A stretch of DNA of 64,000 bases from Flavobacteriaceae bacterium (GTDB lineage Bacteria > Bacteroidota > Bacteroidia > Flavobacteriales > Flavobacteriaceae). The first letter of the stretch is position 1. Each line of letters opens with the position of its first letter. The notes beneath the pieces are model-generated. The model was not told the DNA's origin. It saw only the letters and a list, made by a program, of their open reading frames with translations, and did not search any database. Location of the stretch: contig CANGWK010000001.1 of the NCBI GenBank assembly GCA_947457615.1, positions 79,044 to 143,043 of the forward strand, given 5' to 3'. Both the position numbers and the translations under genes were made by a program. Below, piece by piece: positions 29,636-33,955 of the stretch.

Positions 29636-29745
29636 CAATAAGAAATAAATAGTATACAATAAAAAAATCCATGAATTCTCCACTTTATTTCATTTTGAAG
29701 TTTAAATAAATCTGGAGAATTGTATTGAAAATAAAATTACAAAAA

Positions 29746-32133
29746 ATGAAACGAATAATTAAAAAAGCAGCGATTATTGGGTCCGGAATAATGGGGTCTG
29801 GTATTGCCTGCCATTTTGCTAACATTGGTGTTGAAGTACTGCTTTTGGACATCGTTCCTAATTCTTTAACCGAAGCCGAAGAAAAAAAGGGATTAACACT
29901 AGAAAGTAAAGTAGTTCGCAATAGATTGGTAAACGACCATTTGGCGTACGCTCTAAAATCAAACCCTTCGCCCATTTATAGTCAGAAGTTTGCTAATAGA
30001 ATCACAACAGGAAATACTACCGACGATATTGCAAAAATTGCTGCCTGCGATTGGATTATTGAAGTTGTTGTAGAACGATTGGAAATCAAGAAATTAGTAT
30101 TCGAACAAATTGAAAAATTCCGCAAACCAGGAACATTAGTAACCTCTAATACTTCTGGAATTCCTATAAAGTTCATGAGCGAAGGCAGAAGTGAGGACTT
30201 CCAAGAAAATTTCTGTGGAACGCATTTCTTCAATCCGGCGCGTTATTTAAAATTATTCGAAATTATTCCTGGTCCGAAAACTTCTACGGATGTACTAGAT
30301 TTTCTAACCATTTATGGTTCGCAATTTTTAGGAAAAACTTCGGTAGTAGCCAAAGATACTCCAGCATTTATAGGAAACCGTATTGGTATTTTCGGAATTC
30401 AAAGTCTTTTCCATTTGGTAAAAGAAATGGGATTAACCATTGAAGAAGTGGATAAATTAACTGGTCCTGTTATTGGTAGACCTAAATCGGCTACGTTTCG
30501 AACCGTAGATGTTGTTGGTTTAGACACTTTAGTACACGTTGCAAATGGCTTATATGAGGGTTGCCCGAATGATGAAGCACACGACTTATTTAAACTTCCA
30601 GACTTTGTCAATAAAATGATGGAAAATAAATGGCTGGGAAGTAAAACCGGACAAGGATTTTACAAAAAAGAAGGTAAAGAAATTTTATCTTTAGATTTAA
30701 ATACTTTAGAATATAGAGCAGCTAAAAAAGCATCTTTTGCAACTTTAGAGCTAACTAAAACCATTGATAAACCTATTGATCGTTTTAAAGTTTTAGTAAA
30801 AGGAAAAGACAAAGCAGGCGATTTTTATAGAAAAAACTTTGCAGCAATGTTTGCTTATTGTTCCAATAGAATTCCTGAAATTTCCGATGATCTTTATAAA
30901 ATTGACGATGCTATGAAAGCCGGTTTCGGTTGGGAAAACGGTCCTTTTGAAATTTGGGATTCCATTGGTGTTGAAAAAGCAATTGAGTTAATGAAAGCCG
31001 AAGGCTATGCTCCTGCTGCTTGGGTTAATGACATGCTTGCTTCTGGAAGTTCTTTTTATACTGTAAAAAATGGAGCTACACATTATTATAATATTACAAC
31101 AAAATCTCAAGAGAAAATTCCTGGTCAAGATGCCTTTATTATTTTAGATAACATTCGTGTAAGCCATAAAGTATGGGGTAATTCGGATGCTACTGTTTTT
31201 GATATAGGAGACGGGATTTTGAACTTAGAATTTCATTCTAAAATGAATACTATTGGTGGTGGTGTTTTAACAGCCATCAATAAAGCAATTGACATGGCCG
31301 AAAAAGAATACCGCGGATTGGTTATTGGTAATCAAGGAACTAATTTCTCCGTTGGTGCTAATATTGGAATGATTTTCATGATGGCTGTCGAACAAGAATA
31401 CGATGAATTGAACATGGCAATCAAAATGTTTCAAGACACTATGATGCGCGTGCGCTATTCCTCTATTCCTGTAATTGTTGCACCTCACGGAATGACTTTA
31501 GGTGGTGGTTGCGAAATGAGTATGCATGCCGACCGTGTTGTTGCTACTGCAGAAACCTATATTGGATTAGTTGAATTTGGCGTTGGAGTAATTCCTGGTG
31601 GTGGAGGATCTAAAGAAATGACTCTGAGAGCCTCCGATCTTTTTCGCAAAAACGATGTGGAACTTAACGCACTTCAAGAATATTTCCTAACTATTGGTAT
31701 GGCAAAAGTTGCAACTTCGGCTTATGAAGCATTCGATTTAGGAATTTTACAAAAAGGAAAAGACATCATTGTGGTAAATAAAGACCGTCAAATTGCAGTT
31801 GCCAAACAAGTAGCTTTGCAAATGGCAGATCAAGGGTATACCCAACCAATTCGTAGAACCGACATTAAAGTATTAGGTAAACAAGCATTAGGAATGTTCT
31901 TGGTTGGAACCAACCAAATGGCAGCCGGAAAATACATCTCGGAACACGATTTAAAAATAGCTAATAAATTAGCCTATGTAATGGCTGGTGGTGATTTATC
32001 GGAACCAACATTGGTAAGCGAACAATATTTATTAGATATTGAACGCGAAGCCTTCTTGTCATTGTGCACCGAAAGAAAAACATTAGAAAGAATTCAATTC
32101 ATGCTAACCAAAGGAAAACCGTTGAGAAATTAA
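29746..32133 (+). CDS. 3-hydroxyacyl-CoA dehydrogenase / enoyl-CoA hydratase (FadN-like)
   Basis: AIIGSGIMGSGIA, SNTSG, HFFNP, FIGNRIG; crotonase part FSVGAN, LGGGCE, GLVEFGVGVIPGGGG. Confidence 0.93.
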   Translation: MKRIIKKAAIIGSGIMGSGIACHFANIGVEVLLLDIVPNSLTEAEEKKGLTLESKVVRNRLVNDHLAYALKSNPSPIYSQKFANRITTGNTTDDIAKIAACDWIIEVVVERLEIKKLVFEQIEKFRKPGTLVTSNTSGIPIKFMSEGRSEDFQENFCGTHFFNPARYLKLFEIIPGPKTSTDVLDFLTIYGSQFLGKTSVVAKDTPAFIGNRIGIFGIQSLFHLVKEMGLTIEEVDKLTGPVIGRPKSATFRTVDVVGLDTLVHVANGLYEGCPNDEAHDLFKLPDFVNKMMENKWLGSKTGQGFYKKEGKEILSLDLNTLEYRAAKKASFATLELTKTIDKPIDRFKVLVKGKDKAGDFYRKNFAAMFAYCSNRIPEISDDLYKIDDAMKAGFGWENGPFEIWDSIGVEKAIELMKAEGYAPAAWVNDMLASGSSFYTVKNGATHYYNITTKSQEKIPGQDAFIILDNIRVSHKVWGNSDATVFDIGDGILNLEFHSKMNTIGGGVLTAINKAIDMAEKEYRGLVIGNQGTNFSVGANIGMIFMMAVEQEYDELNMAIKMFQDTMMRVRYSSIPVIVAPHGMTLGGGCEMSMHADRVVATAETYIGLVEFGVGVIPGGGGSKEMTLRASDLFRKNDVELNALQEYFLTIGMAKVATSAYEAFDLGILQKGKDIIVVNKDRQIAVAKQVALQMADQGYTQPIRRTDIKVLGKQALGMFLVGTNQMAAGKYISEHDLKIANKLAYVMAGGDLSEPTLVSEQYLLDIEREAFLSLCTERKTLERIQFMLTKGKPLRN

Positions 32134-32136
32134 GAA

Positions 32137-32207
32137 GCCTCGTAGAGGCGCCCTGTTTATAGAAAATTTATGTTTAATTAAACATAGCTCCGTAGGAGCT
32201 ACCCGTT
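32137..32207 (+). repeat. Left REP-like doublet
   Basis: GCCTCGTAGAGGCgccCTGTT (32137-32157), 18-bp palindrome TATGTTTAATTAAACATA (32169-32186), AGCTCCGTAGGAGCtACCCGTT (32186-32207). Confidence 0.75.
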
Positions 32208-32210
32208 ATT

Positions 32211-32672
32211 ATGGCAAATACCTATTCACAAATTTATATTCAAATTGTTTTTGCAGTAAAAGGAAGACAAAATCTAATTGCAAAAGAAAACCGTGAAGAA
32301 TTAAATAAATTTATTACAGGTATTGTAACAAATAGAGAACAAAAACTATTAGCAATTTTTGCAATGCCAGATCATGTTCACATTTTAGTTGGATTGAAGC
32401 CAAGCATTTCAATTTCAGATTTGTTAAGAGATATAAAAGCCGGTTCATCAAAATTTATAAATGACAGCAAATGGATAAAGGGAAAATTTAATTGGCAAGA
32501 AGGATTTGGAACATTTTCATATTCCAAAAGCAATTTGGATAATGTGGTAAAATATATTTTGAACCAAGAAGAGCGCCATCAGAAAAAAACATTTAAAAAT
32601 GAATATTTAGATTTTTTAGAAAAATTTGAAATTGAATATGATTCAAATTATTTATTTGATTGGGTAGAATAA
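32211..32672 (+). CDS. tnpA: IS200/IS605-superfamily TnpA / REP-associated tyrosine transposase
   Basis: IQIVFAVK, HUH motif MPDHVHIL, IKAGSS, WQEGF, catalytic Tyr in YILNQ; no tnpB. Confidence 0.9.
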   Translation: MANTYSQIYIQIVFAVKGRQNLIAKENREELNKFITGIVTNREQKLLAIFAMPDHVHILVGLKPSISISDLLRDIKAGSSKFINDSKWIKGKFNWQEGFGTFSYSKSNLDNVVKYILNQEERHQKKTFKNEYLDFLEKFEIEYDSNYLFDWVE

Positions 32673-32674
32673 TT

Positions 32675-32744
32675 AACAGGTCGCTCCTACGGAGCTTCCC
32701 AAAATATAAAAATAACGTCTAGTAACAGTTTACCTCTACGAGGA
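32675..32744 (-). repeat. Right REP-like doublet (inverted)
   Basis: Reverse complement reads AGCTCCGTAGGAGCgACCTGTT (32675-32696) and TCCTCGTAGAGGtaaaCTGTT (32724-32744). Confidence 0.75.
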
Positions 32745-32767
32745 TAATGAAAGAAAAAAATGAATTT

Positions 32768-33955
32768 ATGAAAAACACAACCGCTTACATTGTTTCTGCA
32801 TACCGAACAGCCGTTGGAAAAGCACCAAAAGGAGTTTTCCGATTTAAACGTCCTGATGAATTAGCAGCAGAAACAATTCAATTTATGATGAATGAATTAC
32901 CAAATTTCGATAAAAAAAGAATTGACGATGTTATGGTTGGAAACGCTATGCCAGAGGCCGAACAAGGACTAAATGTTGGCCGTTTAATTTCTTTAATGGG
33001 ATTAAAAGTAACCGATGTTCCTGGTGTAACCGTAAATAGATATTGTGCTTCAGGATTAGAAACCATCGGAATGGCAACGGCAAAAATACAAAGCGGGATG
33101 GCCGATTGTATTATTGCAGGTGGTGCCGAAAGCATGAGTTTTATTCCTATGGGAGGTTACAAACCAACGCCCGATTATGCAGTTGCAAAAGAAGGGCACG
33201 AAGATTATTACTGGGGAATGGGTTTAACAGCAGAAGCAGTTGCAAAACAATATAATGTAACTAGAGAAGATCAAGATTTATTTTCTTTCAATTCCCATCA
33301 AAAGGCATTAAAAGCGCAAGCAGAAGGTAAATTTGACAAACAAATAGTTCCAATTACAGTAGAACAAACTTTCATCAATGAATTAGGAAAAAAAGAAACC
33401 AAATCGTATATTGTTTCTAAAGATGAAGGACCACGAGCAGATACTAATTTGGAAGCCCTAGCAAAATTAAAACCAGTTTTTGCTGCCGATGGAAGTGTGA
33501 CTGCAGGTAACTCCTCACAAATGAGCGATGGAGCAGCATTCGTTTTAATAATGAGCGAAGAAATGGTAAAAGAATTGGGGGTCACCCCTATTGCCCGATT
33601 GGTAAACTTTGCATCTGCAGGAGTTGAACCAAGAGTAATGGGAATAGGTCCGGTAAAAGCAATTCCTAAAGCTTTAAAACAAGCAGGATTAACTTTAAAC
33701 GATATTGATTTAATCGAATTAAATGAAGCATTTGCATCACAATCGTTGGCGGTTATAAGAGAATTAGGATTAAATCCAGACATAGTTAATGTAAATGGTG
33801 GTGCAATAGCTTTAGGGCATCCACTAGGTTGTACTGGTGCAAAATTATCAGTACAATTATTTGAAGAAATGCAATTGAGAAAAAGCAAATACGGAATTGT
33901 AAGCATGTGTGTAGGCACAGGACAAGGGAGTGCAGGAATTTATGAGCTGTTGTAA
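32768..33955 (+). CDS. fadA: Acetyl-CoA C-acyltransferase (thiolase)
   Basis: TVNRYCASG, TAGNSSQMSDGA, NEAFA, NGGAIALGHPLG, SMCVGTGQG. Confidence 0.95.
   Translation: MKNTTAYIVSAYRTAVGKAPKGVFRFKRPDELAAETIQFMMNELPNFDKKRIDDVMVGNAMPEAEQGLNVGRLISLMGLKVTDVPGVTVNRYCASGLETIGMATAKIQSGMADCIIAGGAESMSFIPMGGYKPTPDYAVAKEGHEDYYWGMGLTAEAVAKQYNVTREDQDLFSFNSHQKALKAQAEGKFDKQIVPITVEQTFINELGKKETKSYIVSKDEGPRADTNLEALAKLKPVFAADGSVTAGNSSQMSDGAAFVLIMSEEMVKELGVTPIARLVNFASAGVEPRVMGIGPVKAIPKALKQAGLTLNDIDLIELNEAFASQSLAVIRELGLNPDIVNVNGGAIALGHPLGCTGAKLSVQLFEEMQLRKSKYGIVSMCVGTGQGSAGIYELL

Follow-up and report, generated by a model that had tools for sequence, protein, structure and literature searches.

The 64,000-nucleotide stretch of Flavobacteriaceae DNA analysed here, which we refer to as the window (G000:C1:79044-143043 of the host assembly G000), contains a short cassette made up of one Y1 transposase-like gene of the HUH type and four small hairpin modules, two on each side of the gene in mirror-image arrangement, all lying between a fadB-like gene and a thiolase gene (Table 1). 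The original prediction, made from the nucleotide sequence alone, was that of an intact HUH/Tyr transposase without tnpB, enclosed by nested inverted hairpins resembling repetitive extragenic palindromic (REP) sequences. The gene and its surroundings are indeed as predicted: the Pfam model Y1_Tnp (PF01797) covers the 153-amino acid product of the open reading frame (ORF) end to end with 87 bits, no tnpB gene is found next to it, its neighbours being the fadB-like and thiolase genes, and a domain search of the whole G000 genome found no TnpB-type domain anywhere. Both inverted pairs were recovered as well. The inner pair (32186-32208 and 32674-32696) spans 23 nt with 91% complementarity, and its description as touching the start and stop codons is nearly literal, with the left unit ending 2 nt ahead of the ATG and the right unit beginning 1 nt past the TAA. 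The outer pair (32138-32163 and 32718-32743) spans 26 nt with 77% complementarity.

All four units possess a GTA loop when read on the strand on which the tail lies 3' of the hairpin. The gene-side tail of each arm is of the CTGTT type, and the stems are either GCCTC/GAGGC or GCTCC/GGAGC. The idea that two sequence variants of one structural motif are present was kept, with the correction that the stems, previously given as 5-6 bp, measure 6-7 bp (inner left), 5 bp (inner right), 5 bp (outer left) and 4 bp (outer right). A chance origin of the paired motifs is unlikely: GCTCCGTAGGAGC occurs twice in the window versus 0.03 expected occurrences and CCTCGTAGAGG twice versus 0.11, a number reached in one of 100 shuffles. 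When the region is folded as single-stranded DNA (ssDNA), all four hairpins are predicted to form, and the left end folds far better than shuffled sequences (z -3.7). The A+T palindrome ATGTTTAATTAAACAT between the two left modules is located outside the conserved module; it forms a small extra hairpin in the minimum free energy structure, not in the centroid, and a different palindrome is found at its place in the congener G046.

Table 1. Features of the cassette and of its two neighbouring genes, with positions in the window.
Feature	Position	Strand	Basis
fadB-like gene (3-hydroxyacyl-CoA dehydrogenase / enoyl-CoA hydratase), upstream neighbour	29725..32133	+	ORF list
Outer-left module: hairpin GCCTC-GTA-GAGGC (32137-32149) and tail GCCCTGTTTATAGAA (32150-32164), TAG at 32160-32162	32137..32164	+	sequence, inverted pair, ssDNA fold, family module
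Perfect 16-nt A+T palindrome ATGTTTAATTAAACAT between the two left modules	32170..32185		sequence
Inner-left module: A, GCTCC-GTA-GGAGC (stem extendable to 7 bp) and short tail TACCCGTTATT without TAG, reaching the ATG	32186..32210	+	sequence, inverted pair, fold
Y1 (HUH) gene, intact, 153 aa	32211..32672	+	Pfam, NCBIfam, alignments, AlphaFold2 model
Inner-right module: A, GCTCC-GTA-GGAGC and GACCTGTTAA, tail abutting the stop codon	32673..32696	-	sequence, inverted pair, fold
Outer-right module: CCTC-GTA-GAGG and TAAACTGTTACTAGA; TAG is plus-strand CTA at 32720-32722	32718..32743	-	sequence, inverted pair, fold
Acetyl-CoA acyltransferase (thiolase) gene, downstream neighbour	32747..33955	+	ORF list

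The Y1 protein contains the motifs DHVH at residues 54-57, W95-Q96 and Y115-ILN-Q119-EE-R122-H123, followed by a C-terminal extension (residues 124-153). In an alignment of 88 homologues, D54, H57, W95 and Q96 are invariant and H55 is conserved in at least 90%, and every residue that is invariant across these homologues is also present in the window's protein. The extension aligns family-wide, with F128, E131, Y132, L136 and F149 conserved at 90% or more, and residues 128-138 form a helix in the AlphaFold2 model (pLDDT, the predicted local distance difference test score, of 92.8). The best PDB matches of this model are the TnpA proteins of ISDra2, IS608 and IS200, and E. coli TnpA-REP (4ER8) ranks lower. 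PDB matches at the sequence level are solely ISDra2, IS608 and archaeal IS200 TnpAs (E 4e-7 to 9e-4); no match to 4ER8 was obtained at E<=0.01, and the similarity to this protein is seen at the fold level only. The NCBIfam IS200 model NF033573 scores 68.2 bits versus a cut-off of 55, whereas the model for REP-associated tyrosine transposases (RAYTs), REP_Tyr_transpos (NF047646), stays below its cut-off of 80 with 39.6 bits. The Y motif of the protein, YILNQEERH, is of the Y-x3-Q form (class 1) and not Y-x3-NP (class 2), and together with the RAYT score this rules out a strict RAYT (class 2) identity. TnpA-Y1 subclass 1.2 has been described with the motifs DH[IV]H, WQ and YIKNQKEHH (Y-x3-Q-x2-HH), a median length of 148 aa, a specific C-terminal domain and a mean of 1.7 copies, in Cyanobacteria and Bacteroidetes (Quentin, Siguier, Chandler & Fichant 2018, BMC Genomics 19:475, PMC6006769). 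Judged by motifs, length and C-terminal extension against Table 1 and the text of that study rather than with the authors' hidden Markov model (HMM), the Y1 protein appears to fit subclass 1.2 with one signature residue changed: R122 takes the place of the first H of the HH signature, which is HH in 90 of 95 relatives and RH in three.

Subclass 1.2 is listed without REPs or IS-type terminal structures (PMC6006769), and no description of repeats for it was found in the literature that could be searched. With its modules, this locus departs from what has been published on the subclass, whereas the protein itself stays within the family. They are also not peculiar to the window. We compared 95 loci from several phyla, comprising 12 loci from relatives' genomes, 80 from named public genomes and a few extra copies; these loci are mutually related, so that module counts are not independent events. 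The taxonomic range of the relatives extends to Verrucomicrobiota, Ignavibacteriota, Poribacteria, Acidobacteriota and others. G+C-rich hairpins are present on both sides of the gene at 75 of the 95 loci, and the flanks contain a polar module of ~29 nt with fixed spacing, which consists of an A, a 5-bp stem, GTA, the stem complement and GAnnTnTTTnTAGAA. The 16 nt on the gene side of the hairpin follow the consensus G-A-(C/A)-(A/C)-T-(G/A)-T-T-T-(A/G)-T-A-G-A-A, in which the TAG follows on the 3' side of the stem at a constant distance of 10 nt, and on the far side the A alone is conserved. The tail has a clear polarity, 112 TNTAG tails being directed at the gene and 31 away from it, and TAG is carried by 93 of 219 outer units versus 19 of 170 innermost units. 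GTA is the commonest loop in the family, but it is not invariant. The original prediction had also suggested a distinct REP class with GTA within the hairpin. The modules are distinct from REPs with their GT[AG]G 5' foot, but the conserved element is mainly the TAG tail.

The same module emerges without any pre-selection of hairpins. When every T[GAC]TAG in the flanks was used as an anchor, 179 distinct sequence segments were obtained. In 88 of these, all five stem pairs are present in a single fixed register that puts the end of the stem 8 nt before the anchor, and 13 further segments fit a register with a 4-nt loop. Shifting the 3' partner makes pairing less consistent, with at least one position falling to 0.11-0.26 per shift, although several positions still remain at 0.5-0.75. 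The stem pairs covary, each with several standard types (e.g. GC 73, AT 28, TA 6; also GC/AT/TA and CG/TA/GC), and a hairpin of at least 5 bp accompanies the anchor on its gene-distal side in 65% of the cases versus 17% on the gene-proximal side. Moreover, the tails vary by protein clade, as in GACCTGTTTGTAG, GACATCTTTGTAG, GAAATATTTATAG and TTAATATTGGTAG: the window's own clade has GACCTGTTTaTAG, the Verrucomicrobiota clade GaCATCTTTnTAG, another Flavobacterium clade TTAATATTGGTAG, and a clade of Ignavibacteria and Bacteroidota GaaATtATTATA, combined with ACCCC-GAA hairpins. Geometry, polarity, covariation and clade-specific tails are as would be expected of the cognate DNA site of the protein, which we presume the module to be.

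The Y1 gene is present in a single copy in G000, as seen by tblastn and by a PF01797 search. Its closest relative has 87% protein identity. Y1 genes were found in 20 of 41 genomes of the genus, with 1-4 divergent copies per genome, the paralogues being 34-77% identical, and near-identical copies within a genome were not found in any genome examined. Only two of 72,556 plasmid records carry Y1 relatives. The gene is under purifying selection, with an omega (the ratio of nonsynonymous to synonymous divergence, dN/dS) of 0.04-0.15 and of 0.096 versus the closest orthologue. Outside of the element, no exact hairpin motif with 0-1 mismatch is present in G000; a perfect 5-bp stem rich in G+C and continued by CTGTT or TGTTnnTAG rises above background only at the element itself, and GTA triloops on 5-bp stems are not over-represented. 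Short repeats such as these modules normally survive draft assembly, yet the completeness of G000 is just 94.7%. The suggestion that the element seeds repeats genome-wide is therefore not borne out in G000, where not one free-standing copy of the exact or generalised motifs was counted, and gene-less copies in the congener G011 occur only in low number. One further motif, ATTCCGTAGGAATC, with ~6 copies, was set aside as its flank differs. We also noted a GTA-loop hairpin motif, WTTCC-GTA-GGAAT-CT, often following CATAGTTTNTNA, at approximately five or six A+T-rich sites in G000; the sites C1:188578, C6:50738, C16:59503, C19:52193 and C21:41858 are located outside the window, and their flanks are unlike the Y1 module tail.

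A tandem array of 222 bp in 3.0 copies with 85% matches (L034, G011:C33, 770-1433) follows the orthologous cassette of G011. Each array unit comprises the outer-left module, the last ~40 nt of the Y1 ORF, and the inner-right and outer-right modules. The deletion junction is at TAGAAA, a sequence found in the outer-left tail and again within the ORF as TTTTTAGAAAAA (codons F-L-E-K), and the window's Y1 gene has the same look-alike around 32612-32624. Such a junction would fit either enzyme-mediated cleavage and rejoining at the TAG site or a microhomology deletion. In addition, G011 contains seven dispersed gene-less clusters of modules, which are found in both orientations in intergenic DNA. 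One of these (L044) is a perfect 150-bp unit in the order outer left, inner left, inner right, outer right, a form resembling REPINs, the inverted doublets of REPs. In five others (L046-L050; C12:29169, C23:50267, C23:69676, C13:315793 and C9:54047) the order is inner right, outer right, outer left, inner left with the tails facing outward, the reverse of the cassette order, as might be seen at the junction of two elements or of a circle. Within the 41 genus genomes, true hairpin units around the 11-mer GGAGCGACCTG are found just in G000, G011 and G046, the carriers of this Y1 clade; matches in the Y1-less congeners G003, G014, G016 and G048 lack a hairpin, look like chance matches in coding sequences and were discarded. 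Among 151 Flavobacteriales genomes, GGAGCGACCTG reaches at most 14 matches, all in one tandem array, and at most eight where dispersed, and a control pattern also gave scattered matches. The array with 14 matches, in a genome of another family of the same order (G108:C98:33415-34481), has a period of ~75 bp with all matches on one strand and is a tandem array of the module tail.

Based on these results, we propose that the locus is probably one copy of a conserved resident cassette, in which a selected, single-copy gene for an HUH/Y1 nuclease of subclass 1.2 is accompanied on each side by two presumed cognate modules in mirror-image, REPtron-like arrangement. The mirror-image ends, the single-copy gene and the conservation of the module in relatives agree with the REPtron-like element of the original prediction; the protein, not being a strict RAYT, does not. 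A possible mechanism can be drawn from the biochemistry of the IS608 and ISDra2 TnpA proteins and of E. coli TnpA-REP (general knowledge together with PMC6006769 and PMC3733652). The recognized module would consist of an A, a 5-bp G+C-rich stem, a 3-nt loop (mostly GTA), the stem complement and the tail GA(C/A)(C/A)T(G)TTT(A/G)TAGAA directed toward the gene. We hypothesize that the enzyme binds the hairpin of this module once the DNA becomes single-stranded, that Tyr115 cuts the outer modules in or close to their TAG-bearing tail with the help of a metal held by H55, H57 and Q119, and that the cut ends are rejoined by the enzyme. The inner modules, located right beside the start and stop codons and mostly devoid of TAG, probably provide additional binding sites and/or dampen expression. 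Because the tails face inward, this geometry is unlike that of IS608 and closer to inverted REP pairs. The cassette would be a long-lived chromosomal resident rather than a multiplying insertion sequence (IS), in agreement with the single Y1 gene of G000, the few and divergent copies in the genus, the scarcity on plasmids, the purifying selection and the occupation of the same fadB-thiolase site in nine genomes of Flavobacterium and Chryseobacterium-like lineages. In some genomes its modules have been amplified beside it or shed as gene-less clusters. In G000, nothing appears to have been shed, and the four flanking modules would be the sole possible substrates of a cassette that is alone and presumably quiet.

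Several observations weigh against this proposal. The lack of free modules in G000 leaves a REP-mobilising role without targets there, and the low copy numbers elsewhere make the analogy with REPs a structural and not a quantitative one; the partnership of module and enzyme is real but low-copy. The residue R122 may lower the function of the protein. The right-hand hairpins fold no better than shuffled sequences (z -0.8 to -1.3), since their stems are only 4-5 bp long. Finally, in a comparison with empty sites in relatives, as suggested by the original prediction, 27 of the 30 fadB-thiolase junctions read in Flavobacterium are without the cassette, the carriers being G000, G046 and G011, but no clean filled/empty pair that would place the element ends and cleavage sites to the base was found among close relatives, because the nearest of these carry other inserts or the long GAAGAAAGAAG palindrome at the junction.

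The most serious alternative, which we nevertheless regard as unlikely, is that the cassette is an ordinary autonomous IS of the IS200 group, in which the unit 32137-32743 transposes as a whole with the hairpins as its ends, and that a recent arrival or rare transposition, perhaps favouring the fadB-thiolase junction, accounts for its single copy. Besides the score of the protein above the cut-off of the IS200 model, it is the distribution of the cassette that would speak for such an element, as its location varies between genomes and G046 carries a further copy at another site. The fadB-thiolase junction itself is occupied in at least nine genomes from two families of Flavobacteriales; among the 80 named loci these are F. 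foetidum, one Flavobacterium-like metagenome-assembled genome (MAG), three Chryseobacterium species and one related MAG. Within the genus, the carriers are dispersed over the thiolase tree, requiring four changes, at least two of which are forced by supported branches. The G011 cassette is fused to the first 42 nt of a gene for a four-helix-bundle protein; since this gene is an insert of its own at the junction, a separate event is suggested. The divergence of the genes also fits horizontal spread: the dN of Y1 is 0.11-0.16 between families and 0.06-0.12 within the genus (~1.3-1.5x), versus 0.22-0.24 and 0.04-0.10 for the flanking genes (~4-fold), and the dS of Y1 (~0.7-0.9) is below that of the flanks, which is largely saturated. 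An autonomous IS does not, however, explain the absence of near-identical copies from the examined genomes, in which the paralogues have diverged widely, nor the near absence of the family from plasmids. Its ends would be expected to be asymmetric and on the same strand, like the left and right ends of IS200/IS605 elements, rather than mirror images (established knowledge and PMC6006769), and purifying selection has been maintained at a conserved site over saturated synonymous divergence.

On the Y1 tree, the four Flavobacterium carriers group together (SH-aLRT, a likelihood-ratio branch support, of 86), as do the four Chryseobacterium-type carriers (96), and forcing all nine Y1 proteins of the fadB site into one clade is not rejected (p-AU 0.76, approximately unbiased test). 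Taken together, the divergence pattern tends to favour a degree of horizontal movement in which the same address was reached again; old residence at fadB-thiolase with many losses is the alternative, and with one 153-codon gene and single-gene host trees the data are suggestive, not decisive. For one address to be kept or re-found in two families, either residence would have to be very old and followed by many losses, or homing would have to be directed by sequence or structure.

A quite different explanation, which we consider very improbable, is that the hairpins act in RNA only, as intercistronic stabilisers, insulators or translational occluders of the fadB-thiolase transcript, and are not substrates of the enzyme. 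The cassette does lie within a probable operon, the two flanking genes being only 4-14 bp apart in several congeners. At 71 of 82 loci the Y1 gene runs in the same direction as the gene upstream of it, which could reflect read-through expression or else the known strand bias of single-strand transposases. The start and stop codons are each directly adjoined by an inner hairpin, and IS200 is known to occlude its ribosome-binding site by a hairpin. Two left-hand hairpins have a terminator-like score on the minus strand. However, the modules are mirrored with the tail directed toward the gene on both sides, and one transcript would therefore present different sequences on each side. The gene-less clusters occur between genes in both orientations, the tails covary with the protein clade, and no Rfam family matches the region even at E<=10. 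Least probable of all is a decaying relic, an inactive gene with fossil ends and no present function, as might be read from the R in the signature motif (H122R), the absence of other modules from G000 and the weak 4-bp stem of the outer-right module, since the reading frame is intact with all residues that are invariant in the 88 homologues, the gene has an omega of only about a tenth versus its closest orthologue, all four modules are recognisable and RH is also found in two other family members.

In G000, the outer-left hairpin begins 3 nt after the stop codon of the fadB-like gene, and 24 nt separate the outer-right hairpin from an ATG at 32768 (MKNTTAY), which is probably the true start of the thiolase in place of the mechanical ORF start at 32747, because alignments with orthologues begin at query residues 4-13, mostly 7-12. 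The stop codon of fadB and this likely start are ~630 bp apart with the Y1 cassette between them, and apart from this spacing no effect of the cassette on this pair of fatty-acid-oxidation genes is visible. The C-terminal 199 aa of the fadB-like protein are 86-95% identical to those of 29 other junction loci of the same genus and 87-88% identical to those of two further Flavobacterium-like loci. Empty junctions mostly have spacers of 4-120 bp, usually with the long GAAGAAAGAAG...CTTCTTTCTTC palindrome. The junction is a hot spot for small inserts: a small four-helix-bundle gene resembling 23S intervening sequence (IVS) proteins is present in G009, G019 and G049, and G024 has a 150-bp insert with inverted ends rich in GGGGG/CCCCC. 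The assembly as a whole amounts to 2.85 Mb in 95 contigs with 33% G+C. Its small contigs C53, C72, C76, C80 and C88-C93 have a G+C content far above this value and probably represent the reported 2.9% of contamination.

The textbook example of a domesticated ssDNA transposase living together with miniature repeats of its own is provided by REP/RAYT systems, which have been tied to class-2 Y1 enzymes. We speculate, and regard it as possible rather than likely, that subclass 1.2 Y1 proteins and the 29-nt polar hairpin-TAG module form a separate, phylum-spanning partnership of the REP/RAYT kind, which arose from the IS200 branch (class 1) independently of the class-2 RAYTs and in which lineages keep or re-find one genomic address. 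If subclass 1.2 indeed has a cognate module, the REP/RAYT-like lifestyle would have evolved at least twice. The module would then also be a compact substrate (29 nt, a 5-bp stem and TAG at +10) for biochemical work on how Y1 enzymes read hairpins and guide sequences. As regards annotation, such genes should not be named 'IS200/IS605 family transposase' without qualification. The point of interest specific to this locus is the fadB-thiolase address common to two families.

Among known systems, TIRtrons with their TIRYTs (Di Nocera et al. 2013, PMC3733652) and class 3 TnpA-Y1 proteins (PMC6006769) are similar in that Y1 genes are accompanied by inverted non-canonical repeats or atypical secondary structures, and these repeats are sometimes also dispersed at low or moderate copy. 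TIRYTs belong mostly to subclass 2.1 and have helix-turn-helix tails and GGGG[AT][CG]A[CG] repeats (PMC3733652, PMC6006769), and class 3 proteins have a CnGA foot and a different core (PMC6006769); neither matches the protein or the module of the window. IS200/IS605 elements (IS608, ISDra2 and IS200; subclass 1.1) provide the closest matches in sequence and structure, with identical catalytic residues, and likewise use subterminal hairpins and nearby short conserved sequences as recognition and cleavage elements. In these elements, however, each end has a different hairpin, both lying on one strand and with the cleavage sites outside, whereas the ends of the cassette are mirror images with the tails inside, and the cassette has neither multiple identical copies nor tnpB and is kept at the same site across genera. 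The cassette thus also falls outside IS200/IS605 with regard to asymmetric ends and multiple copies. Insertion of IS200/IS605 elements takes place 3' of a specific tetra- or pentanucleotide without duplication of the target; the left flanks of the nine elements at the fadB site have only the fadB end in common.

The reference systems for REPtrons and RAYT-REPIN pairs are E. coli TnpA-REP YafM (PDB 4ER8) and the Pseudomonas RAYTs, and these systems are reportedly the subject of work by Nunvar in 2010, Bertels and Rainey in 2011 and Ton-Hoang in 2012. Like them, the cassette combines a single-copy Y1 gene with inverted copies of a short cognate palindromic repeat on its flanks; the repeat varies with the protein clade, gene-less inverted doublets (L044 of G011) and tandem clusters exist, and the family is mostly chromosomal and long-lived. 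Unlike them, the protein is of class 1 (Y-x3-Q) and not class 2 (Y-x3-NP), with a RAYT HMM score under the cut-off, and the TAG is located in the tail 10 nt 3' of the hairpin, with a conserved A at the 5' position where REPs have the GT[AG]G foot. In addition, the stems are only 5 bp long, and copy numbers range from zero to about a dozen instead of hundreds. The system is therefore REPtron-like, yet it lacks three features of RAYTs and REPs, namely the class-2 Y motif, the GT[AG]G 5' foot and high-copy dispersal. The closest counterpart is subclass 1.2 (PMC6006769), with which the window's element shares DH[IV]H, WQ, the Y-x3-Q-x2-HH type of motif (RH here), a length of ~150 aa, the C-terminal extension, low copy number with divergent paralogues and occurrence in Bacteroidetes. 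It differs from the subclass as published in that the gene is bracketed by a polar module of hairpin and tail, here and at most of the 95 loci, and in the wider taxonomic range over which these loci are found.

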